Sequence record: OZ418233.1
Length of the DNA: 40,362 nucleotides
From: a phage
Reading direction: 5' to 3' (one strand)
Shown: in pieces, positions 3,212 through 34,230 of the stretch
Layout of the letters: each line of letters starts with the position of its first letter
Numbering within the stretch: position 1 is the stretch's first letter
Position numbers and translations under genes: made by a program
The notes under the pieces: model-generated
The model's input: the letters and a program-made list of their open reading frames with translations, nothing else
Database searches by the model: none
Told to the model about the DNA's origin: nothing

Positions 3212-3226
3212 TTACCTGAAAGGTAA
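3212..3226. promoter_or_regulatory. palindromic operator-like motif TTACC-TGAAA-GGTAA
   Basis: Perfect TTACC-N5-GGTAA inverted repeat, about 90 bp upstream of the first virion gene; one of 12 such sites in the window. Confidence 0.55.
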
Positions 3227-11958: not shown

Positions 11959-12503
11959 TGTGCGATCCGGTTATTGCTGGTGGCGCAATGCTCGCCATGA
12001 GTGGCATTCAGGCATACACCCAGTACCAACAGGGAAAGTATGCCTCGAAGGTTGCAGAAGCGAACGCAGATATAGCCACTGCTCAGGCAAATGATGCAAT
12101 AAACATAGGTAACGCTGAAGCTGAGCAACGGCGCAGAGAGACCCGACAGCGGCTTGGTACACAGGCGGCGACAATGGGGGCTACCGGCGCTGATTTATCT
12201 ACAGGTAACGCGCTGGATATATTTGGCGACACTGCTCAGTTTGGCGCTCTTGATGCGCTGACGACGGTGAATAACGCGCAACGCGAGGCTTACGGTTATC
12301 AGGTTCAGGTTGCCAACTATAAAGCAGAAGCCAGTTCAGCCCGTAAACAGGGGAATGTAGGAGCAGCAACAACATTGCTCACTGCGCCTCTGAAGGCATA
12401 CGGTGCGTACCAGATGTTTGGTGGGACGTGGAGTCCGTTTACTCAAAGCACTCCTGCGCCAATCGGGGCAGCAGCAGGAACCAGATTACCCGGAGGATTA
12501 TAA
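11958..12503 (+). CDS. internal virion protein, T7 gp14-like
   Basis: Starts Met-Cys and ends with a Gly/Ala-rich basic tail (APIGAAAGTRLPGGL), resembling T7 gp14 as I recall it; stop overlaps next start (TAATG at 12501-12505). Confidence 0.55.
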   Translation: MCDPVIAGGAMLAMSGIQAYTQYQQGKYASKVAEANADIATAQANDAINIGNAEAEQRRRETRQRLGTQAATMGATGADLSTGNALDIFGDTAQFGALDALTTVNNAQREAYGYQVQVANYKAEASSARKQGNVGAATTLLTAPLKAYGAYQMFGGTWSPFTQSTPAPIGAAAGTRLPGGL

Positions 12504-14932
12504 TGCCAGTCGTACCAACAGTATCCGGACGTCAGGTTGAGAGTCGTGGAGTTCAGTCAGCAGGCTTGCAGACGTTTTCTCAGCCAGGTATTGGTGATGC
12601 TTTTGTTCGGGCAGGGACAGAGGCAATTGATGTTTTGGGGCAGGCAAAACAGCGTGCCAATATCGCTCTGGCTCAGGAGGCATCTCTTAACCTCAGTCAG
12701 ATAAGCAGCGATCTGCTGAATAATCCTGAAACAGGATTGCTTAACCTGAAAGGGAAAAATGCTATTGGAAAAGGCCATGAGTATACGCAGCAGTTTGATG
12801 CTCAGGTCGAACAACTGGCTATGTCGCTGCCGGATGAACAGGCTCGTAATGCTTTCATGCAGCAGGCGCAGCAGCAGCGTATTCAGTTCACTACGCAGGC
12901 CGGGCGGCACGAGATAGGGCAAATAAATGCCTACGAAGAAGGCCAGTTTCAGGCTACACTGCTGAACAATGGTAAAAATGCCGCAGCATTGTATGGCGAC
13001 AACGCCGCATACGTATTGGCTAACAAGCAAACTTTCCAGCAAATTGAGGAGTACGGTGTTGCACATGGCTGGAGCAACGAGCAAATCCAGGCCAAGAAAA
13101 TCGAGTTTAAAGAGAAGGTTGCTGATGCTGCATTGTCCCAGTGGTCGGCAAACAATGCGACCGCATTCATCCAAAGTAATGGCGAGTTAAGTGATACTGC
13201 TGCTGGAGCTCGCCGTGCTGTAGCAGATAGTGACTCTTCCGAGCGTGCCCGTGGCATACGCAACAATAACCCAGGAAATCTCGAATACAGCAAAACTAAT
13301 CCGTGGGTAGGCCAGACCGGTGATGATGGTCGATTTGCTAAATTCGAAACACCTGAACACGGGATTCGTGCATTAGGGCGGAACCTGATGTCGTATCAGA
13401 GGCAGGGTATTGATACCGTCAGCGAGATAATTAATCGCTGGGCACCGCCTACTGATAAAAATGACACTATGTCGTATATCAAAGCAGTGTGCGAACAACT
13501 TGGCGTTTCTGCTGATGAGCCTCTCGATGCATCTAATCCTGATACCCTGAAGGCGCTTTGTGCAGCCATTATCCATCATGAGAACGGTAGCCAGCCATAC
13601 AGTGATCAGCAGTTAACTGCTGGTGTCAGTGCAGCACTTGGTTTATCAACAATTCCAACCAACATCAAACGCTATACCGGTAATGCAGCATTCGATGCGG
13701 CATCTCCTGAGGCGCAGGCAAGTTTTATGCGACAGGCGGATCAACTGCGTCGGCAGCAGCAGGCTGAATATAAAACGATGATTGACAGCCAGGTTCGCGA
13801 TGCGACAGCTGCGTATATGCGTGGCGTTGAATTTCCTAACCCACCTGGTGAGGCTGATTTTATTGCAGCTTATGGAGTCAGAGAAGGAAACCTGCGATAT
13901 ACCGAGTTCAGAAATGCGCAAATCGCCGGACAGTATATAGGCTCTTTCCGCAACATGCCGACAAGCAGCATTACATCATATGTTGAGCAATTACGCCCGG
14001 ATACTGGTGAGACAGGGGAGGGTTATGCGGCACGAGCCGCTCTTTATGACAACGTTGTGTCGGCTGCAAGTCAGGTGATAAAGCAGCGACAGGCTGATCC
14101 TGTACAGTTCTCTCTTGCCGCCGGACAGGCAAAGCCTATCGACATGAGCAATAAGGATAACTTTGGACAGAGCGTTGCCTTGCGTGCCGCTCAGGTCAGT
14201 GACCTTGCTAAGTCATATGGCACTCCACTGACGTTCTTTTCCAAAGACGAGGCCAATCAGATCGGTGTTTTCTTTCGTGATGCGCCCGTTTCCCAACAGG
14301 CAGCATATCTCGATACCATCAGGCAGAGCACTGGTGGTGGGCAGGTGTATATGTCAGCACTACAGCAGATCAGTGCCAACGCTCCATCTGCTGCCGTTGC
14401 CGGGATACTGATGGATAAGCCAGGTGGTATTTTGGCAGAAAAAAACTGGTTTAATCCGGATGTTTCCGTGTCTCCTGAAACCGCTGCGCAGACAATTCTT
14501 GCTGGCGCGGCGGCTCGTAAAGGTACTGATGACGCGAAAGGTATTCCGATGCCTAAAGATGCTGATCTTCGCCTTGAGTTTTCTGACATGGTGAAGGATG
14601 CATTTGCTGGTGATGCTCAGGGGGCATCAATGGCATACGAGATCGCAAAGGACTATTACGCTGGTGTGATGGCGAAAAAAGGCGTGGTATCAGGCGAAAT
14701 TGACAATGATATCTGGAAACAGGCTGTTAACGTAGCTACAGGTGGCGTGCATGACTATAACGGAATGGGGAATGTTCTTTTGCCGTGGGGAATGTCTGCA
14801 GAGCAATTCGATAAGCAGGTTAATCAGGCTTGGAATGAACAAGTTGTTGGCACAGGGATAAAAACACCGCCTGGTCAGTATGGTGAACCGCCCCGGGAAT
14901 CCTGGAGACTAAACTTCCTGAGAAAGAGGTAA
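12503..14932 (+). pseudogene. large internal virion/ejection protein gene, 3' end disrupted by IS insertion
   Basis: Reading frame runs into the IS left end at 14884 and stops at an IS-internal TAA (14930-14932); the original reading frame resumes in frame after the IS (16197-16329). Contains motif RNNNPGNLEY, which may mark a cell-wall-hydrolase-like domain (unverified). Confidence 0.7.
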
Positions 14933-14937
14933 ACAGG

Positions 14938-15264
14938 ATGACTAAAAATACTCGTTTTTCCCCCGAAGTCCGTCAACGGGCAGTCCGTATGGTTCTGGAA
15001 AGTCAGAGCGAATATGACTCACAATGGGCGACAATTTGTTCCATTGCTCCAAAGATTGGCTGTACGCCGGAGACTCTGCGTGTCTGGGTTCGCCAGCATG
15101 AGCGGGATACCGGGGGCGGTGATGGAGGGCTCACCACCGCTGAACGTCAGCGTCTGAAAGAGCTGGAACGTGAAAATCGTGAACTGCGCCGCAGTAACGA
15201 TATCCTTCGCCAGGCTTCCGCTTATTTTGCGAAGGCGGAGTTCGACCGCCTCTGGAAAAAATGA
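14938..15264 (+). CDS. IS3-family transposase OrfA (HTH)
   Basis: 108 aa ending in a leucine-zipper-like segment ([25 protein letters not shown]); overlaps orfB in the -1 frame as in IS3 elements. Confidence 0.85.
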
Positions 15265-16151
15265 TGCCACTGCTGGATAAGCTGCGTGAGCAGTACGGGG
15301 TCGGACCGCTATGCAGCGAACTGCATATTGCCCCGTCAACGTATTACCACTGTCAGCAACAGCGACATCATCCGGATAAACGCAGTGCCCGTGCGCAGCG
15401 CGATGACTGGCTGAAGAAAGAGATACAGCGCGTATACGATGAAAATCACAAGGTATACGGTGTGCGTAAAGTCTGGCGTCAGTTGTTACGGGAAGGTATC
15501 AGAGTGGCCAGATGCACTGTGGCACGTCTCATGGCGGTTATGGGACTTGCCGGTGTTCTCCGGGGTAAAAAGGTCCGTACGACCATCAGCCGGAAAGCCG
15601 TTGCCGCAGGCGACCGCGTAAACCGTCAGTTCGTGGCAGAACGACCTGACCAGCTGTGGGTGGCTGATTTTACTTACGTCAGCACATGGCGGGGCTTCGT
15701 CTATGTGGCGTTCATCATTGATGTGTTTGCCGGATACATCGTGGGGTGGCGGGTCTCATCGTCCATGGAAACGACATTCGTGCTGGATGCACTGGAGCAG
15801 GCGTTATGGGCCCGTCGACCGTCCGGCACGGTCCATCACAGTGATAAAGGTTCTCAGTATGTATCGCTGGCCTACACACAGCGGCTTAAGGAAGCCGGAT
15901 TACTGGCATCAACAGGAAGTACAGGCGACTCGTATGACAACGCGATGGCGGAGAGCATCAATGGTCTTTACAAAGCGGAGGTAATACACCGTAAGAGCTG
16001 GAAAAACCGTGCAGAAGTGGAACTGGCCACACTCACGTGGGTGGACTGGTATAACAATCGACGATTGCTGGAAAGGCTGGGCCATACTCCTCCGGCAGAA
16101 GCAGAAAAAGCTTATTATGCTTCCATCGGAAACGATGATCTGGCAGCCTGA
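15261..16151 (+). CDS. IS3-family transposase OrfB (DDE integrase-like catalytic domain)
   Basis: 296 aa with rve-type features (WVADFTYV..., HSDKGSQY..., [15 protein letters not shown]); overlaps orfA, consistent with programmed frameshift expression. Confidence 0.85.
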
Positions 16152-16193
16152 GTTCACAGATAAAACACTCTCCAGGAAACCCGGGGCGGTTCA

Positions 16194-18133: not shown

Positions 18134-20608
18134 ATGAGACAGGAATGTATACAAGCGGTCCAGCAGGCGGCGCAGCGCACGTTAACGGCGCGAGAAATAC
18201 AGAACATTGAAGACCGCATTTATCGCAATATGCGCTCCATTGCTCGTGATGACCCTATGTCGTGGCGACAACTTTCCGAGTCAGAGCGGCTGTATCGTGC
18301 AGCACAATTGGCATCTGAAGAATTACAGCGAGAAGCGGCATTAAAGAAACGTCGTGTGGCTCTTACTATAGCCGCACGTCAGAGATTGGATAAATTTATC
18401 AATAGCTATCAAGGGGCTGATGGGAAACTTGGCGCTCTTAACCGTACTATTGCTTTTAATGCAGACGGTAAATCGAATTTCCTCTCTGTTGAGTCCAGAA
18501 CAAAAGCCACTCGTGATTATGCATTGAGTCAATTGCAGGAGGCATTTGAAGCAGTTGATCCTCGCTTTTTTGGCCTGTTTGAAGATGAAGCTGGCGTGCG
18601 TGACCTGGTATATGAAATGCGAGGGCAAAATACTGGCAATGCTAAAGCAAGAAAAGGTGCTAAGGCGTGGAGAGAAGTGACAGATCTACTGCGCCGCCGG
18701 TTTAATGATGCTGGTGGGGACATTGGCTATCTCGAAAACTGGGGGATCCCTCAACATCATTCTATGGAAAAGGTTGGGACGGTATCAAAAGATAAATGGG
18801 TTAGCGATGTTATAGGTAAGCTGGATCGCAAATATTATACCCGAGCCGATGGACAACTGATGAACGATGCCGAGTTGTCTGCATTTCTTGGAGAGGCTTA
18901 TAACACGATCGCTACTGGTGGGCTGAATAAGCTTACTGATACCGGAATGCGAATTTCCGGCGCACGTGCTAACCGTGGTAATGCATCACGACAGATACAT
19001 TTCAAAGATGCAGATTCCTATCTGCAATATCAGCAACTTTATGGCGATCGCTCTCTATGGGAAATCATGGTCGGTCACCTTGAAGGTATCAGTAAAGATA
19101 TTGCACTGGTGGAAACATATGGCCCAAACCCCGATCATGTTTTCCGCTCTCTTCTTGATCAGGTGAAGGCAGAAACGGCAACAGCTAACCCGAGTAAAAC
19201 CGGTAAAGTCGAGCGGCTGGCGAACAACACAGAGAATCTGTACAACTTTATTTCCGGAAAGACACAGCCTGTAGCGAATCCGCACATCGCGCGATGGTCT
19301 GACAATATCCGCAACTGGCTGGTTGCCAGCAGACTCGGATCCGCGTTGCTGTCATCGTTCTCTGATCTTGGAACCATGTATCTGTCTGCGAAGGTTACCA
19401 ACCTTCCAATGAACCAGTTATTCCGCAACCAGCTTGAAGCTATGGACCCAACGAACCGTACAGAACTTGCGCGGGCGCGCCGCGCTGGTCTGGCGATGGA
19501 ATCTCTACTTGGCAGCGTTAACCGCTGGGCGATGGATAATATGGGGCCGTCTGTGTCTCGTTGGGCTGCAACGGCGGTGATGCGTGCCAGTGGGCTTACA
19601 GCATGGTCAGATGCGCACAAGCGCGCCTATGGCGTAACCATGATGGGAAGCCTGGGAGAAGTAGTGTCACGGACACCAGACCTTCGTAGCCTCGATGATT
19701 CTGATTTTCGTATCCTGAAAAGCAAAGGGATTACTGACACAGACTGGAGCGTATGGAAGCTGGCGCAACAGGAGGACTGGGGGAACGGCAATAATACGAT
19801 GCTGACACCGGAAAGCATTATGCGTATCCCTGATTCAGCAGTTAAACATCTTGGTGAGCCTGAACGCGTGAAATTTGAGGCAATGCGTAAACTGCTCGGT
19901 GCCGTAACTGAAGAAGTTGATATGGCTGTTATTACACCGGGAGCACGTGAGCAACTGATAACCGGTTCTGGTATTCAGCGTGGAACATGGAAAGGTGAAT
20001 TAACGAGAAGTGTTTTCCTGTTTAAATCGTTCCCTATCTCGGTGGTTATGCGTCACTGGTCACGCGCTATGGGTATGCCGTCTGCTGGTGGGCGTGCGGC
20101 ATATATTGCGACGTTTATTGCCAGTACGACCATTCTTGGCGCTTTGTCGCAGCAACTTAACGACCTTGCGTCTGGTCGTAATCCTCGCGAGATGACAGGA
20201 GAAGATGCTGCTAAATTTTGGCTTGGTGCTCTACTGAAAGGTGGTGGTCTTGGCCTTTACGGTGACTTTTTATTGTCAGATCACACTAGGTACGGAAGCG
20301 GCGCGCTGGCGTCGATGCTTGGCCCGGTAGCTGGTCTGGTTGATGACGTAGTGAAGATTGCTCAGGGCATACCGTTAAATGCTGTGGAAGGGAAGAATGA
20401 GCAGACTGGTGGTGATCTGGTTAAGCTGGGGAAAGGTCTGATGCCAGGTGCGAATCTCTGGTACTTAAAGGCGGCTCTCGATCACATGATCTTTAACCAG
20501 ATGCAGGAGTATTTTTCACCAGGTTATTTGCGTAAAATGGAGCAACGTTCGAAGAAAGAGTTTAACCAGACATACTGGTGGCGACCACAGGATGTCACTC
20601 CGCAATAA
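18134..20608 (+). CDS. large internal virion/ejection protein (824 aa)
   Basis: Last and largest gene of the virion core block; hydrophobic C-terminal segments; RBS GAGAGG upstream. Confidence 0.45.
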   Translation: MRQECIQAVQQAAQRTLTAREIQNIEDRIYRNMRSIARDDPMSWRQLSESERLYRAAQLASEELQREAALKKRRVALTIAARQRLDKFINSYQGADGKLGALNRTIAFNADGKSNFLSVESRTKATRDYALSQLQEAFEAVDPRFFGLFEDEAGVRDLVYEMRGQNTGNAKARKGAKAWREVTDLLRRRFNDAGGDIGYLENWGIPQHHSMEKVGTVSKDKWVSDVIGKLDRKYYTRADGQLMNDAELSAFLGEAYNTIATGGLNKLTDTGMRISGARANRGNASRQIHFKDADSYLQYQQLYGDRSLWEIMVGHLEGISKDIALVETYGPNPDHVFRSLLDQVKAETATANPSKTGKVERLANNTENLYNFISGKTQPVANPHIARWSDNIRNWLVASRLGSALLSSFSDLGTMYLSAKVTNLPMNQLFRNQLEAMDPTNRTELARARRAGLAMESLLGSVNRWAMDNMGPSVSRWAATAVMRASGLTAWSDAHKRAYGVTMMGSLGEVVSRTPDLRSLDDSDFRILKSKGITDTDWSVWKLAQQEDWGNGNNTMLTPESIMRIPDSAVKHLGEPERVKFEAMRKLLGAVTEEVDMAVITPGAREQLITGSGIQRGTWKGELTRSVFLFKSFPISVVMRHWSRAMGMPSAGGRAAYIATFIASTTILGALSQQLNDLASGRNPREMTGEDAAKFWLGALLKGGGLGLYGDFLLSDHTRYGSGALASMLGPVAGLVDDVVKIAQGIPLNAVEGKNEQTGGDLVKLGKGLMPGANLWYLKAALDHMIFNQMQEYFSPGYLRKMEQRSKKEFNQTYWWRPQDVTPQ

Positions 20609-20804
20609 GGAAGTGTTGTGTTTTTAATTATTTTGAGTGTGATAATTTCTGGTGGATTGTTATTTATTGACCGCTACAAATATTTTCTTAACCCTCAGAC
20701 TCAAGCTATTTGCTGGTTCATCTTTGTTGTGCAGGGAGTCGTTCTTGTTGCAAGCCTTATTGAGGGGAGGCCTCTTATTTTTACTGGGTAAATTAGGTGA
20801 CTAC

Positions 20805-21101
20805 ATGCAAGCTATAGGATTCATTGTTTATATCGTCGTTGGTCTTTTTCAGTTGGCAGCAATTATGGCTGGGCTTGAATCATGGTGGGGATTGCACTGG
20901 ATAATTGCAGCCCCCATTGCTTTCATCGTGAGCTATATTCCATTTGTTGGAGCGATTGTTGGTATGGTTGGCGCTGTGGATGTATGGCGGTGGGAGTGGT
21001 GGCAGGCTGGCCTTCTCTTCTTTGGTGGGATCATCTTTGCTATTGTCTGCGGTGGAATGTCATCATTTTTCGAATGGCTAGCATTCAGAAAAGGAACGTG
21101 A
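20805..21101 (+). CDS. small integral membrane protein (99 aa)
   Basis: ATG 20805 preceded by AGGTGA; about three hydrophobic helices; followed by a strong terminator. The longer ORF from 20652 lacks an RBS. Confidence 0.5.
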   Translation: MQAIGFIVYIVVGLFQLAAIMAGLESWWGLHWIIAAPIAFIVSYIPFVGAIVGMVGAVDVWRWEWWQAGLLFFGGIIFAIVCGGMSSFFEWLAFRKGT

Positions 21102-21110
21102 CATGTCACA

Positions 21111-21134
21111 GGCCGCTTTCGCGGCCTTGTTTTT
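21111..21134 (+). terminator. intrinsic terminator
   Basis: GGCCGC-TTTC-GCGGCC hairpin followed by TTGTTTTT. Confidence 0.65.
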
Positions 21135-21294
21135 AACGAATGCCACCGCCTCCCGGGCGGGAATCCGCAGAACGCCCACCGCAGCGGGAGCCGTCAGCGG
21201 CAGTATCGCTGTCGTGCTGACAACGACCGGCAAAGGCCTGAGTTGAAGCTACCAGAGACAACAAAACGAACAGTGCAGCAAATGCTTTTTTCAT
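21133..21294 (-). CDS. small secreted/lipoprotein-like peptide (53 aa)
   Basis: Internal Met of the 77-aa ORF gives MKKAFAALFVLLSLVASTQAFAG..., a signal-peptide-like N-terminus; weak RBS; uncertain gene. Confidence 0.3.
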   Translation of the reverse strand: MKKAFAALFVLLSLVASTQAFAGRCQHDSDTAADGSRCGGRSADSRPGGGGIR

Positions 21295-21387
21295 TGTGAA
21301 ATTTCCATCTATAAGCCACCTCAATGTGGCGTCAATGAGTGTAGCACTGACTTTTGTTTCGTCCACAAAAAATCCCGCAGCGCGGGC

Positions 21388-21831
21388 TTATTCTTCTTCT
21401 TCATCATTAAAAAGCGGATTGTTGTTTCCATCTGATGAAAGGAAAGGTATGTGTTCTCTTGAAAATCCAACAATGACAATTTCATTATCATTTTTTGCAT
21501 AATGAATGCATTCATTAGAATGCATTCCGCCAGGGTTGAAATTTAAGTTAATGGTATAATTCTTAAATGTGTTTGGATACCATGTTGGCCCACAATGATA
21601 ATGCCAATAATTCTCTTGCTCATAATTGTCTGAGCCGGGAATTTTATCATGGTTATCATCAACCCACGAGGGCTTGTTTTTTCCAACAAGCGCCCTTCCA
21701 TTGGCAACATCCTCTAAAAACCTTTGTATGATTTTTATTTCATCATCAGTAAGGAAAGGTCCGTCTACAGCGAAAGGGGTGTTGCTTTCCCCATGTAGAA
21801 AACTATTAGATATTCTAATGTTAAACTTCAA
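21388..21831 (-). CDS. hypothetical acidic protein (147 aa), AT-rich
   Basis: TTG start with RBS CAGGAG 7 nt upstream; visibly low GC versus flanks; strongly acidic (poly-E C-terminus); clustered His/Cys (HYHCGP, NECIHY); no family recognised. Confidence 0.5.
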   Translation of the reverse strand: MKFNIRISNSFLHGESNTPFAVDGPFLTDDEIKIIQRFLEDVANGRALVGKNKPSWVDDNHDKIPGSDNYEQENYWHYHCGPTWYPNTFKNYTINLNFNPGGMHSNECIHYAKNDNEIVIVGFSREHIPFLSSDGNNNPLFNDEEEE

Positions 21832-21851
21832 GGAAAACTCCTGATGTGCTT

Positions 21852-22019
21852 CTATTTGGAGCGAAATGCCGCCTTGAAGTCGCTAAAAGATGTTCCTGTC
21901 TGGTAAACCATATCCTTGTCGCGCTCTTTGCTTGCGCGACCAAGCATAACTTTTCCAATGACATCCCAGCATTGCTTGGCTTGTTCATTGTGCTGAGTAC
22001 GATTTTTCAACGCTGTCAT
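21852..22019 (-). CDS. hypothetical small protein (55 aa)
   Basis: Not in the supplied ORF track (below 60 aa); found by reading the minus strand: ATG with strong RBS AAGGAGG, translation MTALKNRTQHNEQAKQCWDVIGKVMLGRASKERDKDMVYQTGTSFSDFKAAFRSK, stop 21 bp upstream of the 147-aa gene. Confidence 0.35.
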   Translation of the reverse strand: MTALKNRTQHNEQAKQCWDVIGKVMLGRASKERDKDMVYQTGTSFSDFKAAFRSK

Positions 22020-22031
22020 ATCGCGCCTCCT

Positions 22032-22046
22032 TTACCTTTAAGGTAA
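22032..22046. promoter_or_regulatory. operator-like motif TTACC-TTTAA-GGTAA
   Basis: Perfect copy of the shared palindrome, 13 bp upstream of the 55-aa gene start, directly after a -10-like TAATAT on the minus strand. Confidence 0.55.
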
Positions 22047-22112
22047 TATTACGCGAATCTACATCACATCGCCAATGATTATTTTAAAGGCACATCCCTG
22101 TGCCGCCGCCCG

Positions 22113-22799
22113 TCAGAAGAACCCTGCTTTGTCGTTGATGTACTCCGCGTGGGTCTGGATATCACGCAGGCATTTGCTCACACCAACGATGTAGCAGAAC
22201 ATGGTGGTCAGCTCCGCCGCCGCTCCCGATACGTCGTGCCCGTCGTCCTGTAACTGGTTCAGCAGATTCATCAGCAGTGAGTTCTCCGTCAGGCCGAGAA
22301 CACCAGACGGCGAATGAATCAGGCTACGGTAGCCGGGCTTCAGTGGGGCGCTGTAGGTTTTGTTCTCTATCTTCATTGCCTGCATCACTGCTGACGCCGT
22401 GGCGTTGGCTACCTGGTCGGCAACCATCTTTATGCGTTCTTCTTGCGGGAGCGAGTTTTTAATGTAACTTCCGGTGCGGCGGATCTGAGGAAGAACCTCA
22501 CCTGTAACCCATTTACGAAAGCGGTATGGGATAGTGCCTGGTGTCACCGCATCGCGGCAGCGGAGGATCAGTGTGTAGAGGCCTGACTCGTTGATAATAT
22601 TGGTTTCGCCTTGACGGCCTAAGTTAAATTTAGCCCTTTCATCATCATCAAGAGATTTTATTGACATAGTGGGGTTTGTCAGTTGAAGAGCTTTAATAAC
22701 GTCTTTGGCAACAAACCAAGGATTTCCATCAATAACAATGGCTCGAATGGTTGCTTCTGATTCAAAATGAAAAACAGATGGGGTTACGTTAGCAGTCAT
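22113..22799 (-). CDS. Bro-N domain protein (antirepressor-like), 228 aa
   Basis: From internal ATG with RBS AGGTGA: MTANVTPSVFHFESEATIRAIVIDGNPWFVAKDVIKALQL... is a Bro-N-type N-terminal domain; C-terminal about 65 aa is paralogous to the small protein at 23945-24217. Confidence 0.7.
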   Translation of the reverse strand: MTANVTPSVFHFESEATIRAIVIDGNPWFVAKDVIKALQLTNPTMSIKSLDDDERAKFNLGRQGETNIINESGLYTLILRCRDAVTPGTIPYRFRKWVTGEVLPQIRRTGSYIKNSLPQEERIKMVADQVANATASAVMQAMKIENKTYSAPLKPGYRSLIHSPSGVLGLTENSLLMNLLNQLQDDGHDVSGAAAELTTMFCYIVGVSKCLRDIQTHAEYINDKAGFF

Positions 22800-23193: not shown

Positions 23194-23922
23194 ATGGAAG
23201 TTTTCTGGATAGTTGTTGGTGTGGTTGCGGTGATTATTTACGTTATCAACCAGAACAAGACTAAGATCTCTGATCGTACGGTCGTTAATCATAACAAAAC
23301 GATAAAGACCGAAGATGGGGAGATAACGATTAATCGTACACAGGTGATAGAACACACCTCTACTCAGTTTCAAAAAACTGGAGGTAATGCGCCTAATATT
23401 TCCGCACCTCCTGCTTATGATAGTGCGGTAATCCAGACATATTATAAACAGCAGGAGTTAGCAAAAGAGAGGCAACTGATTCAGCCAAAGCCGTTTACAG
23501 CTGAGATTCCACCTGGAGTGTCAACGCGTCCGGCATATCATGGAAGATTCCCTGGTGATGACATATCGTCTCAGTCATCTAAAAAAGCACCTCAGGCAAT
23601 ATCAGAGCCAGCAAGAATACCTTCTGTATCGCCGCCAAAAGAAGAATCAGCTAACAGAGTTTCAAGTGGTAGCAAGCAGTGCTTGCGATGCAGAATAAAC
23701 CTTCCATATGAAAAATTCAGGAAATCGTCAAAAAATCCAGATGGATTGACTAAATGGTGTGCAAGGTGTCTCGATGGCCCAAAGAATACACGCCATATGA
23801 AGTGGTGCCCAATTTGTAATGTCCGCAGAAAACGAACCAGCTTTTACCCTAATAATCAAAATGCGGACGGCTTAATGGCATGGTGCAAAACGTGCTGGGA
23901 TGAGCACAAAGCGAAACGATAG
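23194..23922 (+). CDS. membrane-anchored protein with two CxxC zinc-ribbon-like pairs (242 aa)
   Basis: RBS GAGGAAAA; N-terminal hydrophobic helix followed by basic residues; Pro/Ser-rich linker; C-terminal C-x2-C repeats (CLRC, CARC, CPIC, CKTC). Confidence 0.55.
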   Translation: MEVFWIVVGVVAVIIYVINQNKTKISDRTVVNHNKTIKTEDGEITINRTQVIEHTSTQFQKTGGNAPNISAPPAYDSAVIQTYYKQQELAKERQLIQPKPFTAEIPPGVSTRPAYHGRFPGDDISSQSSKKAPQAISEPARIPSVSPPKEESANRVSSGSKQCLRCRINLPYEKFRKSSKNPDGLTKWCARCLDGPKNTRHMKWCPICNVRRKRTSFYPNNQNADGLMAWCKTCWDEHKAKR

Positions 23923-24398: not shown

Positions 24399-26588
24399 AT
24401 GACGGTCTCAACCGAAGTTGACCACAACGAATACACCGGTAACGGCGTTACGACATCATTTCCGTATACCTTCCGTATTTTCAAAAAAACCGACCTGGTT
24501 GTTCAGGTGTCTGACCTGAACGGGAACGTAACAGAATTGGTTCTGGATACCGGTTATAAGGTAACTGGAGCGGGCACTTATAGTGGCGGTGAAGTGGTTC
24601 TCCCGTCGCCGCTTGCTGCTGGCTGGCGAATTACGATAGAGCGTGTGCTTGATGTGGTGCAGGAGACTGATCTTCGCAATCAGGGAAAATTTTTCCCCGA
24701 AGTTCATGAAGATGCATTTGACTACCTGACGATGCTGATCCAGCGATGTTTTGGGTGGTTCAGACGTGCATTGATGAAACCATCTTTGCTTGCAAAATAT
24801 TACGATGCAAAGCAAAACAAAATTTCTAACCTTGCAGATCCATCATTTGAGCAGGACGCTGTAAATAATCGCTCAATGCGTAATTATGTCGATGCTGCAA
24901 TCGCCGGGGTTGTTGGTGGTTTTGGTTGGTTTATACCGTCAGGAAGCGGGGCAAGACAACGAACATTTCAAAGCAAAATGAGGGATATAATTTCTCCTTG
25001 TGATTACGAAGATAATATTTTTATGATTAAGGAGTTGATATCCAAAGGCAAAAATGCCGCTGTTTTTAACTCATATTATACTTTTGTTATTACTGTTGGC
25101 GAATGGGGTGATTACCCTACACTCAAAGATGCAATCATTGCAGCCCAGTCAATGAGACCTATGTGGGATGGTGGTAATGCTTTCTGCGAAATAAGAATTA
25201 AGACCGGGCATATTATCAACTATCAAATTGAATTCAGTTCAGGTGTTGATTTGTCTTGGATTAAAATAACATCAGAAGACTCAGTGGTTTTCTCTGATAC
25301 TCGTTTGTTTACTAAAATCGTTAGAACGTATTACGAATACAAGTATTTATTTTACATTTGCGATGCAGCAAAAAGTCCTGTATTTGCTATTCAGATCGAA
25401 GAAAATAGAGATGATAGCGATGTTTGTGCATTTATTGTAACTCAAAAAGCTGAACTTAATTTCTATCCGTATTCAGGTGCTCGAAAGTTCTACGTTGGAA
25501 TTCATGGTAGTTTTGGTGCAAAAATTAGTGCATATCATACCGGATGTGCTCCTGATGAGGAAAGTGTTGCTGCATATATGCCAGAAGGGTATTACGTATG
25601 TGATTTTTCTTATAGCAGATACTCTTCCCTGCAACTGGTAAATAATGTCAAGGCATCAATGCCTGTAAGCAAGTTTGAACGGTGCACAGAGAGTACGGTT
25701 GCGTCAGTTAATTGTATTTATAATGTTAAAGCAGATTTTCAGGGGTCAAGTGCAAGCTATTGTTATATAGGATGGAATGTAAGAGATGGTTCAAATGTTA
25801 ATATACGCGACCATAAAACTATACATTGCTCATATCGTGGATTAACCTGCATTCATACAGCATATGTTGATGCAAGACGACATGACGTTGAAGAAAGTGA
25901 TGCAGAAACAAGTGGTAAAGTCCTTGAACCAAATATTGAAAAAGGTTTTTATGGATGTGCACTTGGTGTGCGTATTGATGGTGCGGGTTGCGTTGATGTT
26001 GCTGGTAATGATATGCGCAATTGTGGAACAGCCGTTAATGCAGACACTGGTGCTGTTATTTCAGGAAAGGCTGTAGATATCTCAGGGGCTGAGCTGGGAT
26101 TTGATTGCCATGCAGGAGCATCTGTTAATTTTCCAAGGCTATGGGGTACAGATATAAAAAAATTAATGCACCTCCAAGATGGTGTAAGGTTTAACTCTAA
26201 TATTTGTCATGTATTTGGTGCAAATCCCACAAAAGATATTAGATGGATTGATGTAGAGAGATCTGAAGCTTCTTTTATGAATGCAACGCTGGATGCAGAT
26301 TCAGGATTTATTGCCGACTGTGGTAGTAGGATAACCATTGAAGGAAGTAAAGTTAAAAACCAAACAATAAGAAGTTTTTTTGGATCATATGTGGCTATAA
26401 ATAATACTGTTGCTGACAGAACTTATTCAGATATAGCCGATGTTCCGCAGTTGACTATTAGTGGAGGATCTTTTATTTCTGCTACAGGATATTCTAATTC
26501 TGACTCCAGCCCTCTGAGGTTGAGCACAACACGAAATACACTTGGCGTTGGAGGAGCCATATTTTCAACCAATGGGGAAGTTTCATGA
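24399..26588 (+). CDS. tailspike / receptor-binding depolymerase (729 aa)
   Basis: N-terminal about 130 aa resembles the conserved particle-binding module of podovirus tailspikes (from memory); the remaining body is visibly AT-rich; RBS GGAG. Confidence 0.75.
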   Translation: MTVSTEVDHNEYTGNGVTTSFPYTFRIFKKTDLVVQVSDLNGNVTELVLDTGYKVTGAGTYSGGEVVLPSPLAAGWRITIERVLDVVQETDLRNQGKFFPEVHEDAFDYLTMLIQRCFGWFRRALMKPSLLAKYYDAKQNKISNLADPSFEQDAVNNRSMRNYVDAAIAGVVGGFGWFIPSGSGARQRTFQSKMRDIISPCDYEDNIFMIKELISKGKNAAVFNSYYTFVITVGEWGDYPTLKDAIIAAQSMRPMWDGGNAFCEIRIKTGHIINYQIEFSSGVDLSWIKITSEDSVVFSDTRLFTKIVRTYYEYKYLFYICDAAKSPVFAIQIEENRDDSDVCAFIVTQKAELNFYPYSGARKFYVGIHGSFGAKISAYHTGCAPDEESVAAYMPEGYYVCDFSYSRYSSLQLVNNVKASMPVSKFERCTESTVASVNCIYNVKADFQGSSASYCYIGWNVRDGSNVNIRDHKTIHCSYRGLTCIHTAYVDARRHDVEESDAETSGKVLEPNIEKGFYGCALGVRIDGAGCVDVAGNDMRNCGTAVNADTGAVISGKAVDISGAELGFDCHAGASVNFPRLWGTDIKKLMHLQDGVRFNSNICHVFGANPTKDIRWIDVERSEASFMNATLDADSGFIADCGSRITIEGSKVKNQTIRSFFGSYVAINNTVADRTYSDIADVPQLTISGGSFISATGYSNSDSSPLRLSTTRNTLGVGGAIFSTNGEVS

Positions 26589-26881: not shown

Positions 26882-27083
26882 CTGCTACCGCGCCATTAAA
26901 TGGTGCGGTATTCAACCTGCTCTTCACTGTTTGTTTCTTCAGAGTCATGTAAAAGGTGAGCTTTATTCTCGGCATGAAAAACAGGGAATTGACGATGTTA
27001 AAGTAACAAAAAACCATAAATGGTTTATTATGCGTAATGCTTTACTGTTCAGGAGGTTGTTATGCATATAAACGGTGGAAAAC

Positions 27084-27488
27084 ATGTCAGCTCAACTAAC
27101 CAGTGAAACTTTAAATCAGTGGCTTAGCATGAGTTCTCTGGCGGCGGTGATAGCAGGAGTTCCTCCTGAGGTTGCTTTGGGTGCTTTGGCTGGAGCGGTA
27201 ATTTTTGTTACCTCTGCAGTAGAGTACCCCATCCGTCGCCGGGTGCTCCTGTCGATGCTCAGCTTTCTTTGCGGCCTTCTCTTTTACAAACCAGCAGCAT
27301 CAATTCTTATCGGCATAGCCAGCCTGATCCCTACCATCACGCAGGACTCTTTTGAAAAAGGGATTGTTTTCTCTGCAGGCGCATTCGTGTCAGCAATTGT
27401 CGCTGTGCGTATTGGTATATGGCTCTATCACCGTTCCGATAATCCACGCGAGTTAATTCCGGGGAGAAAAGACGATGGTAACGCATGA
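27084..27488 (+). CDS. membrane protein, possible holin/antiholin (134 aa)
   Basis: ATG 27084 preceded by GGTGG; multiple hydrophobic helices; located before the endolysin gene. Confidence 0.4.
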   Translation: MSAQLTSETLNQWLSMSSLAAVIAGVPPEVALGALAGAVIFVTSAVEYPIRRRVLLSMLSFLCGLLFYKPAASILIGIASLIPTITQDSFEKGIVFSAGAFVSAIVAVRIGIWLYHRSDNPRELIPGRKDDGNA

Positions 27489-27783
27489 GTTTTTTTTGCT
27501 TATCACCAATGCAGTTATTTGCACTGGCATAGCAATTCGCGTTGTCACATTCCGGCGTAACGGCTCTCAACACCGAAGGTGGGGAGGATGGCTTGCTTAT
27601 TTCCTGATTGTTGCTGCGGCCAGTATTCCTGTTCGTGTCGCCTATGCAATCTGGTTACGTACGCCAATGGCTGTGGATTTATCTGAGGTCATTATCAACG
27701 CTGTCATGCTAGCTGCGGTTATTAAAACGCGCGGTAACGTCGTTCAAATTTTCAAAGTATCGAGGTCTAAACATGGAGATTAA
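27475..27783 (+). CDS. membrane protein, possible holin (102 aa)
   Basis: Overlaps previous and next genes; three hydrophobic segments; immediately upstream of endolysin. Confidence 0.45.
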
Positions 27784-28402
27784 ACAATTCCAGCGAGCTG
27801 CTGGTATCAGCGAGGCACTGGCCGCACGCTGGTTCTCGCATATAACTTCTGCGATGAAAGAGTTTGGTATCAGCAAACCAGAAGATCAGGCTATGTTTAT
27901 TGCTCAGGTCGGGCATGAGTCTGGAGGCTTCACCCGGTTGCAGGAGAATTTCAACTACAGCGTCAGCGGACTGGCTAACTTTGTTCGGGCTGGGCGTCTC
28001 ACTCAGGGACAGGCCAACGCATTGGGGCGACGTGCAGGCGAACCACCATTGCCACTTGAGCGCCAGAGAGCGATTGCCAATCTGGTGTACAGCAAACGCA
28101 TGGGGAACAATGCCCCTGGTGATGGCTGGAACTACCGTGGGCGCGGGCTTATCCAGGTTACCGGTTTGAATAACTATCGTGACTGTGGAAACGGTCTTAA
28201 GGTTGACCTGCTGGAGAGTCCTGAACTGCTGGCGCAGGACGAATACGCGGCTCGTAGCGCGGCGTGGTTCTTTGCCAGCAAAGGATGCATGAAGTATACC
28301 GGCGATATTGCACGTGTAACTCTGATTATCAATGGTGGCCGGAACGGCATCGACGACCGGCGCGCGCGATACATCAATGCCAGTAAGGTGCTGGCGGTAT
28401 GA
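27773..28402 (+). CDS. endolysin, glycoside hydrolase family 19-type lysozyme
   Basis: Motifs as I recall them for GH19 phage endolysins ([30 protein letters not shown]); followed by overlapping spanin genes. Confidence 0.8.
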
Positions 28403-28896
28403 TCTGGGCATTCGTAAAAGCATACCGGAAACAGTTGATTATCATGGCGGTGCTTGCTGTTCTGGTCATATCAGGAGTTGTTGCCTGGAATGTGCACGGC
28501 ATCCGTCAGTACGATGCCGGGTATGCGCAGGCGAAGGAAGATCAGAAACAGGCTGATGATAAGTTAAGGTCACAGCGTGAGCAGGAGAAAACACAAATTG
28601 AACGTGAAGCACAATCCCGTATCGATGCGGCGCGTGCTGATGCTGAGTATGCTAATTCCGCTGCTGACAGCATGCGCGCCGAGCTTGACAAAACCAGGCG
28701 GCTCGCCGAACACTATACCGGATCTTTCCCCCCTGGCACGCCAGCCAGCAAGGTCATCGGTGTGCTCGCCGACATGCTTGAAGAAAGCAACCGAGTTTAC
28801 AACGCAACAGCAGCTGAGGCTGAAAAGTATCGTATCGCAGGGGAATTCTGCGAGCAGCAATACGATTCACTGAAGAAGCAAAAATCGTGGCACTGA
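28399..28896 (+). CDS. i-spanin (Rz-like)
   Basis: ATG overlaps endolysin stop (ATGA); N-terminal transmembrane helix then a charged coiled-coil-like region; o-spanin ORF embedded in the +1 frame. Confidence 0.7.
28625..28873 (+). CDS. o-spanin (Rz1-like lipoprotein), embedded
   Basis: Embedded in the i-spanin gene in another frame; signal peptide with lipobox LLTAC then Pro-rich mature region; start chosen at MRRVL. Confidence 0.55.
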   Translation: MRRVLMLSMLIPLLTACAPSLTKPGGSPNTIPDLSPLARQPARSSVCSPTCLKKATEFTTQQQLRLKSIVSQGNSASSNTIH

Positions 28897-29133: not shown

Positions 29134-29148
29134 TTACCTTAAAGGTAT
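29134..29148. promoter_or_regulatory. operator-like motif TTACC-TTAAA-GGTAT (one mismatch)
   Basis: Copy of the shared palindrome 43 bp upstream of the integrase start. Confidence 0.45.
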
Positions 29149-34215: not shown

Positions 34216-34230
34216 TTACCGTTGAGGTAA
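34216..34230. promoter_or_regulatory. operator-like motif TTACC-GTTGA-GGTAA
   Basis: Perfect palindrome at the head of the leftward early operon. Confidence 0.55.

Follow-up and report, generated by a model that had tools for sequence, protein, structure and literature searches.

What do two small, convergent genes at the junction between the structural operon and the accessory island of a temperate podophage encode, and do they work together? This question is raised by positions 20,805 to 21,294 of a 40,362-nucleotide (nt) stretch of phage DNA (sequence record OZ418233.1), the whole of which we refer to as the window. A first-pass annotation, made from the sequence alone, had placed here a multi-pass membrane protein of 99 amino acids (aa) and, facing it, a 53-aa peptide with a signal-peptide-like N terminus, and had suggested lysogenic conversion or superinfection exclusion as possible roles. 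Both open reading frames (ORFs) are convergent and lie where that annotation put them, and the length of the peptide was given correctly; the membrane protein has 98 codons (ATG at 20805, stop codon TGA at 21099 to 21101) and is thus 98 aa long. The reading that we favor, at a probability of about one half, is that these are two independent accessory genes that act on the cell envelope and that occupy adjoining slots in the genome.

Two conserved genes that assort independently

Both calls had been described as weak, an assessment that the homology and codon-level data overturn. The 98-aa protein matched the profile hidden Markov model (HMM) of phrog_3075 from end to end (E = 7.3e-54; residues 1 to 98 on profile positions 1 to 98 of 98), and the peptide likewise matched phrog_14503, a family labeled "membrane associated protein" in the moron category, over residues 1 to 53 of 53 (E = 2.3e-40). 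Word-index searches returned 52 homologous clusters for the 98-aa protein and 57 for the peptide, and the homologues came from Escherichia, Klebsiella, Cronobacter, Salmonella, Yersinia, Dickeya, Pectobacterium, and other genera. Homologues named "transmembrane anchored protein" by NCBI were 70 to 98% identical to the peptide. An exhaustive profile search with the 98-aa family yielded 746 cluster representatives at E <= 1e-3, and a profile search with full peptide precursors yielded at least 887 clusters, many of which bear the same NCBI name, even in rhizobia. Both genes are under strong purifying selection at near-saturated synonymous sites. For the 98-aa gene, comparison of E. coli with Klebsiella gave proportions of nonsynonymous (pN) and synonymous (pS) differences of 0.04 and 0.65, respectively, and a ratio of nonsynonymous to synonymous substitution rates (dN/dS) of 0.03. 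For the peptide gene, mean pS was 0.71, and median dN/dS was 0.10 in the mature part versus 0.20 in the signal peptide.

The two genes are distributed differently. Among IMG/VR loci with the membrane-protein gene, 49 of 80 also carry the peptide gene, and 22 of 80 peptide loci carry the membrane-protein gene. In a set of 5426 complete E. coli genomes, a 300-bp module that holds the peptide gene is present in 422 (~8%), and the block formed by the membrane-protein gene and the small gene before it, orf57, is present in 205. On the chromosome of E. coli 118UI, both regions match the window at 100%. Prophages of Cronobacter, Yersinia, and Salmonella have the membrane-protein gene without the peptide gene. 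When both genes are present, they are always convergent and 38 to 58 nt apart. Because they assort independently, we do not regard the two genes as a unit; they would lie side by side because they fill neighboring slots where the structural operon meets the leftward island. The features of the region are listed in Table 1.

Table 1. Features at the junction of the structural operon and the leftward island (positions in the window)
Feature	Position	Strand	Basis or remark
824-aa virion structural protein, putative ejection protein, of the epsilon15 gp17/phiV10 p20 type	18134..20608	+	phrog_684
orf57, 57-aa protein with two hydrophobic segments; GTG start, ribosome-binding site GGAAG	20618..20791	+	ORF kept in Klebsiella relatives; hydropathy
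Shine-Dalgarno sequence AGGTG, 5 nt upstream of the 98-aa start codon	20795..20799	+	Read directly; identical in the Klebsiella orthologue
98-aa inner-membrane protein (predicted), terminal cistron of the structural operon	20805..21101	+	phrog_3075
Perfect 12-bp palindrome GTGACATGTCAC	21098..21109	.	Shares bases with the 98-aa gene's stop codon; left boundary of the mobile module
Intrinsic terminator (predicted), stem 21110-21127, T-tract 21128-21134	21110..21135	+	U-tract in the plus direction only
53-aa peptide precursor (phrog_14503; NCBI "transmembrane anchored protein")	21133..21294	-	Family match
Hairpin GCCAC-N6-GTGGC, predicted 5' end of the peptide mRNA	21315..21330	-	Positional conservation
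Promoter -10 element (putative) TACACT (21343-21338), TG-extended as TGcTACACT	21338..21346	-	Conservation
Terminator-like hairpin CCCGCGCTGCGGG plus T-run, ends the upstream 147-aa gene	21367..21386	-	Right edge of the peptide module

Predicted structure and topology of the 98-aa protein

The description of the 98-aa product as a multi-pass membrane protein is borne out by its hydropathy and by its predicted helices. The protein has a grand average of hydropathy (GRAVY) of 1.27 and three hydrophobic blocks, and an AlphaFold2 model built from a 31-sequence alignment, with a predicted local distance difference test (pLDDT) score of 91, places helices at residues 2 to 28, 32 to 42, 46 to 59, and 65 to 97. 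In this model, two long transmembrane (TM) helices stand on either side of a short helical hairpin. Across the family, lysine and arginine residues are almost confined to the C-terminal tail (2.9 per sequence), and the connecting segments ESWWGLH and DVWRWEWWQ are acidic, rich in tryptophan, and almost without positive charge. By the positive-inside rule, the lysines and arginines of the tail place the C terminus in the cytoplasm. The 11- and 14-residue helices are too short to cross a bilayer, so the likeliest topology is one with both termini in the cytoplasm (N-in/C-in) and a hairpin that re-enters the membrane from the periplasmic side. The hairpin contains the invariant residue P46 and a G49-x3-G53-x2-G56 motif.

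Comparison of the model to structures in the PDB and BFVD using Foldseek did not reveal any match at E < 2. The pore of two-TM/P-loop potassium channels (Kcv and MthK) was considered as a candidate fold; its best Foldseek match had an E value of 3, with TM-scores of 0.3 to 0.44, and was not taken as evidence, and the alignment of the 98-aa family has no selectivity-filter signature of the TVGYG type. The protein has no relative above threshold in Pfam, NCBIfam, or PADLOC, and a PDB profile search with the family came back empty. Most phrog_3075-type relatives are stand-alone proteins of ~100 aa. In a few, the domain is joined to an RDD or MORN region, and these uninformative fusions were all that Pfam scans of the longer proteins containing the domain returned.

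Position and expression of the membrane-protein gene

In all enterobacterial examples (E. coli, Klebsiella, Cronobacter, Salmonella, and Yersinia), the 98-aa gene comes after the last large gene for a virion or ejection protein and shares its strand. In the window, it has the last ejection-protein gene on one side and the tailspike gene on the other, as does sieA in phage P22. The corresponding large gene in the window encodes the 824-aa protein, which matches phrog_684 ("virion structural protein") over its full length (E = 0), and the annotations of phiV10 and phiv142-3 concur. It is the last large gene of the structural operon, and upstream of it lie genes for a 600-aa protein and for a protein with an SLT domain. 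By analogy, we take these three genes as a block of ejection or internal proteins, in agreement with the first-pass statement that the two small genes come right after ejection-protein genes. In E. coli and Klebsiella, orf57 intervenes, with a gap of 195 to 198 nt in 63 of 80 IMG/VR loci; in Cronobacter, the last ejection gene and the 98-aa gene are separated by 1 nt. The orf57 reading frame is kept, with a TTG start, in Klebsiella phage BUCT711 and in K. pneumoniae ATCC 13883, and its product has no PHROG or Pfam match. A terminator-like hairpin inside the end of orf57 (20761 to 20777) is not conserved in Klebsiella and was rejected as a terminator.

A consensus scan of the plus strand from 20000 to 21100 did not find a sigma-70-like promoter, and no repressor operator of the form TTACC-N5-GGTAA precedes orf57 or the 98-aa gene. 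Counted with up to 3 mismatches, this operator gave 27 strand matches (~16 distinct sites) in the window, compared to 0.6 expected, and most of the sites are intergenic or in promoter regions. The site at 3212 precedes the structural genes; those at 22032, 23066, 23159, and 24280 are in intergenic regions of the island or ahead of the tail-fiber gene; that at 29134 precedes the integrase gene; and further sites, at 34216, 34278, 34990, 35038, 37345, and 37407, are in the regulatory region at 34 to 37 kb. The GenBank record of epsilon15 marks the identical sequence, ATTACCTGTAAGGTAAT, as a repressor binding site before the tail-fiber gene. This distribution suggests that the prophage repressor directly controls the promoters of the structural genes, the tail-fiber and lysis genes, the integrase gene, and the antirepressor island. 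We infer that the structural operon, controlled by the repressor, has the 98-aa gene as its last cistron; as such, the product of this gene would be a late lytic protein, made late and not in the quiescent lysogen. This position, together with the lack of a detected promoter, disfavors a lysogen-expressed conversion role for the gene in this phage.

A strong terminator after the membrane-protein gene had also been proposed, and the sequence agrees with it. The hairpin has a G+C-rich stem of 7 bp (6 of them G-C), followed in the plus direction by the T-run TGTTTTTAA, and the T-tract overlaps the stop codon of the peptide gene. Because the U-tract exists only in the plus direction, this hairpin should be a good terminator for the 98-aa gene and a mere 3' hairpin for the peptide mRNA. 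The palindrome that precedes it is conserved in phiV10 and Klebsiella, and a second exact copy is present at 2222 to 2233. With 4 matches versus 1.8 expected in the window, the palindrome is not overrepresented, and it was not treated as an operator. Two small proteins of related phages occupy the slot of orf57 after the gp17-type gene, on the same strand and with a similar terminator: gp18 of epsilon15 (64 aa), whose gene overlaps the gp17 stop codon, and p21 of phiV10 (46 aa). Both are hydrophobic, with two hydrophobic segments, and they correspond by position to orf57, not to the 98-aa protein; they are unrelated to orf57, and DNA homology is undetectable. From this arrangement, the 98-aa gene appears to be an extra insertion between the orf57 slot and the terminator, and small membrane proteins at the end of the structural operon appear to be a general feature of the genus Uetakevirus.

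The peptide carries a signal sequence and belongs to a widespread family

The peptide gene begins with an ATG at 21294 and ends with the stop codon TAA at 21135 to 21133; the codons of the signal peptide span 21229 to 21294, and those of the mature 31-aa part span 21136 to 21228. The precursor consists of MKKAFAALFVLLSLVASTQAFA followed by GRCQHDSDTAADGSRCGGRSADSRPGGGGIR. By direct reading and hydropathy, the first of these comprises MKK, a 14-residue hydrophobic core (AFAALFVLLSLVAS), and the TQAFA of the motif TQAFA/G, where the slash marks the predicted cleavage site. Thus, what had been called signal-peptide-like is, by its sequence, a textbook signal for the Sec pathway and signal peptidase I (SPase I), with cleavage predicted from the motif. 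The mature 31 residues are nearly invariant.

Relatives of the peptide are found well beyond enteric bacteria. Pattern scans, which covered one genome per species, identified them in Alphaproteobacteria (Mesorhizobium, Rhizobium, Agrobacterium, Devosia, Bradyrhizobium, Methylobacterium, and Microvirga), in Cyanobacteria (Dolichospermum, Anabaena, and Nostoc), and in Vibrio and Bacteriovorax. The family shares the core C-x4-D-[RT]-A-[AS]-D-G-S-R-C-G-x-R-[AS][AS]-x-x-R-P-G-G, after which 1 to 5 residues remain to the C terminus. Its N-terminal hydrophobic segment varies freely, and A-x-A is nearly always present at the end of that segment. Some cyanobacterial and Bacteriovorax members have a lipobox in place of A-x-A, and in a few relatives, the domain forms the end of a larger secreted protein. 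Because an A-x-A, a lipobox, or a secreted-protein context is found throughout the family, the domain is expected to be extracytoplasmic and probably released. The labels "transmembrane anchored protein" and "membrane associated protein" therefore probably misdescribe a cleaved, soluble peptide.

No Pfam family covers these peptides, longer domain-bearing proteins included, and a PDB profile search was empty. Neighbor clustering and a Pfam survey around 44 nonenteric peptide genes did not reveal a conserved partner. Literature searches for "transmembrane anchored protein" together with phage, and for the motif DGSRCG, found no papers, and the paper on phage vB_EcoP_ZX5 does not discuss either gene. 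The family distribution suggests that the ancestral role of the peptide was probably cellular and that the gene was borrowed by enteric prophages.

The peptide gene lies in a mobile module

The peptide gene is contained in a module of 300 bp (window positions 21097 to 21396) that is 97 to 98% identical in TL-2011b and EC.W1-9, with the homology limited to this stretch. TL-2011b is P22-like here and has the peptide gene beside arc/ant, and EC.W1-9 is otherwise different in the region. The module runs from the palindrome and the adjoining hairpin to a second hairpin (21374 to 21386), which terminates the preceding leftward gene. Klebsiella phages, including BUCT711, have the module in the same arrangement at 71% nucleotide identity. 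In E. coli, the gene before the module varies (YafO toxin, DUF2335, DUF4760, or a 147-aa protein) and the module is constant, at 95 to 100% identity. phiV10 retains only the hairpin and ~25 nt of the 3' end of the peptide gene. In IMG/VR locus L018 (2563366969_000004), the peptide gene is internally deleted, and its 3' end is joined directly to the upstream terminator. These two cases suggest recurrent loss of the module. Like morons, the peptide module is flanked by terminators and is present in some close relatives and absent from others.

Several elements upstream of the peptide gene are conserved. In 14 of 14 diverse sequences, the T, the A, and the last T of a TAnnnT element are invariant or nearly so, and in the window this putative -10 element lies ~43 nt before the ATG. 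A few nucleotides after it is the leader hairpin; of 16 diverse upstream regions, 15 have a hairpin predicted at the equivalent position. The stems differ by species (GCCAC/GTGGC, GCCGC/GCGGC, GCCGTC/GATGGC, and TTGCC/GGCAA), and the pairing is kept, G-U pairs included. Equivalents of the leader hairpin are present in loci L183 to L195, L004, and L005, and a conserved CTACACA-like box lies between it and the ribosome-binding site. An Rfam scan of positions 20400 to 22200 returned only a noise-level match to a Trp leader. There is no repressor operator before the peptide gene, although one is present between most neighboring island genes; because this operator is lacking, the peptide gene is probably expressed in lysogens. 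Its architecture appears to be that of a classical moron, for which expression in the lysogen is probable.

Genomic context

By sequence, the source phage is an epsilon15/phiV10-like temperate podophage of the genus Uetakevirus. The region around the two genes is 98.6 to 99% identical to Escherichia phages HEMP4 and phiv142-3 and is related to phiV10 and epsilon15. Downstream is a leftward accessory island (the 147-aa protein, a Bro-N antirepressor-like protein, and others), followed by the tail-fiber gene (24399 to 26588) and a full lysis cassette (27075 to 28896) with two holins, an endolysin, and an Rz-like spanin. The next leftward gene of the island, on the minus strand at 21388 to 21831, encodes the 147-aa protein (phrog_5954), which has an acidic C terminus; its slot is the one that YafO, DUF2335, or DUF4760 takes in other E. 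coli prophages. Farther along, a 242-aa protein (phrog_6762; 23194 to 23922) has zinc-ribbon-like C-terminal matches to endonuclease VII, Lar-like, and HNH families, as well as a subthreshold match to the Pfam Stc1 domain. Its gene is divergent from the Bro-N gene, with two repressor operators between them.

The structural operon contains a complete copy of IS629 (IS3 family) at 14884 to 16193, with 25-bp terminal inverted repeats. It is inserted at the 3' end of the gene for the SLT-domain internal protein (12428 to 14932) and is 99.5 to 100% identical to IS629 of Stx phages. This element may render the prophage defective or may exert polarity on the genes downstream, the 98-aa gene among them; the relative phiv142-3 is free of it.

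Discussion

The two proteins would most likely act on an envelope step of infection or on envelope physiology. The 98-aa protein would reside in the inner membrane with both ends in the cytoplasm, a glycine-rich re-entrant hairpin, and tryptophan-rich periplasmic edges. It would be translated after orf57 from the repressor-controlled operon, on a transcript ended by the strong hairpin terminator. As a best guess, it would interfere with, or serve, the inner-membrane conduit through which the ejection proteins deliver DNA, a logic like that of SieA without shared ancestry. The peptide gene would be an autonomous moron with its own weak, operator-free promoter, a stem-loop that stabilizes the 5' end of the mRNA, a modest ribosome-binding site, the ORF, and a hairpin at each end. 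Its product would be exported by Sec, cut after AFA, and probably oxidized to form a loop between Cys25 and Cys38, which would yield a soluble, hydrophilic, 31-residue periplasmic peptide with an expected mass of ~3.1 kDa, less 2 Da for the oxidized form. This peptide would probably be made constitutively, lysogens included, and our best guess is that it binds a broadly conserved periplasmic target and thereby protects or benefits the lysogen.

The positional argument made for temperate podophages in the first-pass annotation has a real precedent. In P22, sieA lies directly after gene 16, the last ejection gene, and is transcribed toward it from a promoter of its own, with the tailspike gene on the other side; sieA encodes an inner-membrane protein of 162 to 164 aa, with about three predicted TM segments, that acts on the conduit of the neighboring ejection proteins (PMC10883804). 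By position and orientation, the analogue of sieA is the peptide gene, and by protein type, it is the 98-aa protein. Unlike the convergent sieA with its own promoter, however, the 98-aa gene is codirectional with the structural genes, and its promoter was not found. SieA types A to C share the motif FxRYPxEAxxFNK (PMC10883804), which is absent from the 98-aa sequence, and BLASTP of this sequence against P22 SieA gave an E value of 19. A putative role in superinfection exclusion, or another role at the envelope, fits the gene position by this analogy. An interpretation as exclusion or conversion is plausible by position and unsupported by homology, and it is weakened for the membrane-protein gene because no lysogenic promoter was found. 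We give the exclusion of incoming phages, by either gene, roughly one chance in four.

The peptide module can also be set beside better-known phage genes. Morons, a concept exemplified by bor and lom of lambda and by HK97, are, like this module, single genes with their own promoter and flanking terminator hairpins. They too are inserted between genes that are adjacent in relatives, are patchily distributed, and are common to unrelated phages. The peptide differs from the lambdoid morons in that its promoter is predicted from conservation, its product is far smaller, and its family is mostly chromosomal outside enteric bacteria. Spackle (Sp) of T4 and other periplasmic phage exclusion proteins, which are small, soluble, and Sec-exported and could meet incoming phage components, offer another likeness. 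They have no homology to the peptide, however, and Sp, with roughly threefold its size, is the product of an early gene in a lytic phage.

Several points weigh against the envelope reading that we favor. The roles proposed were read from sequence and models, and neither protein resembles characterized exclusion, conversion, or defense proteins in Pfam, NCBIfam, PDB, PADLOC, and SieA searches; for PADLOC-DB 2.0, there was no match at E <= 0.1 for either protein or their neighbors. Both the cleavage and the disulfide of the peptide are predictions. Its AlphaFold model is poor (pLDDT 65), with low confidence outside the signal helix. The -35 region of its promoter is weak, and the consensus scan did not report this promoter. 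In bacteria other than Enterobacterales, members of the peptide family are chromosomal and lie among housekeeping genes, and the primary role of the family may be unrelated to phages. Distant relatives of the 98-aa protein adjoin integrases, Bro-N genes, and recombinases and apparently stand alone. Because they sit elsewhere, the association with ejection genes does not hold for the whole family, and in those elements the protein could be expressed and have a role in the lysogen; because they are found in other mobile elements, we regard the family as mobile-element cargo, not as a fixed part of the ejection module. Finally, the IS629 copy upstream may lower expression of the membrane-protein gene in this particular prophage.

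Other explanations have to be weighed against these two independent genes, of which the most obvious is that they form a functional pair (such as a secreted ligand and a membrane receptor, or a toxin and the corresponding immunity protein) carried on one cassette. The genes are adjacent and convergent and share one hairpin, and the arrangement is kept in phage BUCT711 despite its divergence (71% nucleotide identity). Nevertheless, we consider a pair very unlikely: the genes assort independently across the IMG/VR loci and differ in frequency among E. coli genomes, the peptide module enters P22-like and other phages alone, and the membrane-protein gene is found without the peptide in three genera. 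The 98-aa protein could instead be a lysis-timing protein (a holin, an antiholin, or a pinholin-like protein), produced late and oligomerizing through its glycine-rich helices. It is a small multihelix membrane protein coexpressed with late genes, it has G-x3-G-x2-G in helix 3, and annotated holins were among its nonsignificant viral matches in Foldseek, every one of which had E > 2. Its sole Pfam hint, Phage_holin_5_2 (PF16079; E = 0.027), scores 15.2 bits, far under the gathering cutoff of 29.2. The phage already has a full lysis cassette with two holins, and the 98-aa gene is never within a lysis cassette; thus, a role in lysis is doubtful. Independent assortment and the complete lysis cassette are what disfavor the pair and the lysis function, respectively.

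A change of the phage receptor by one or both genes, through conversion of the O antigen or capsule, has a model in the alpha-polymerase inhibitor of epsilon15, annotated in its record as a small two-TM serotype-conversion inhibitor, and conversion genes near the tailspike gene are common in temperate podophages. The conversion genes of epsilon15, however, lie after the tailspike gene and not at this site. Moreover, both families are present in phages with unrelated hosts and receptor-binding proteins (an E. coli tail fiber, a Klebsiella GDSL esterase, an "eliminase," and Cronobacter and Yersinia tailspikes), there is no linked glycosyltransferase or polymerase partner, and no promoter was found from which the lysogen could express the membrane-protein gene, so we regard conversion as quite improbable. 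The peptide might also remain uncleaved, anchored in the inner membrane by its N-terminal helix, and use its periplasmic cysteine-pair tail to modulate a membrane protein such as a sensor kinase, as MgrB does with PhoQ. In favor of this are the NCBI name "transmembrane anchored protein" and the likeness to MgrB, which is presumably also ~50 aa long with two conserved periplasmic cysteines. Yet the hydrophobic segment varies freely, whereas the A-x-A directly ahead of the mature domain persists from phylum to phylum, and some relatives have a lipobox instead or bear the domain as the terminal part of larger secreted proteins; these features argue for a released or lipid-tethered domain and not for a specific TM anchor. 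Since the family is also present in phyla without PhoQ-type partners, we hold an MgrB-like function to be improbable. Lastly, both ORFs are short and the 3' end of the peptide gene overlaps the terminator T-tract, as if chance reading frames lay over a conserved DNA or RNA element (a terminator or an antisense RNA). This is refuted by the codon-level analysis, in which amino acids are conserved at near-saturated synonymous sites, and by the size of both families; with no Rfam match above noise, we give it practically no weight.

The reading of two independent envelope-acting genes can be taken further, to a version that we consider a long shot. Here, the mature peptide would represent an unrecognized, multiphylum family of Sec-exported disulfide-loop miniproteins that bind a universal envelope component, captured repeatedly by enterobacterial prophages as a moron that blocks competing phages, a new peptide type of superinfection exclusion. 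Independently, the 98-aa protein would be an oligomeric, channel-like protein (TM helix, re-entrant hairpin, TM helix) that gates or blocks the DNA conduit.

Both families, phrog_3075 for the membrane protein and phrog_14503 with phrog_3117 for the peptide, are already catalogued as hypothetical proteins, and the window itself adds little to this. The part that merits follow-up is the mature peptide domain, whose conservation reaches from enteric prophages to rhizobia and cyanobacteria and which has neither a Pfam entry nor a structure. A 300-bp module that is carried by ~8% of complete E. coli genomes and that moves between unrelated podophages makes a well-defined candidate for an exclusion or fitness function. 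In addition, one or two small hydrophobic proteins are encoded at the end of each Uetakevirus structural operon that we examined, next to the ejection genes, and these small operon-end proteins may bear on DNA delivery or on exclusion at the inner membrane.

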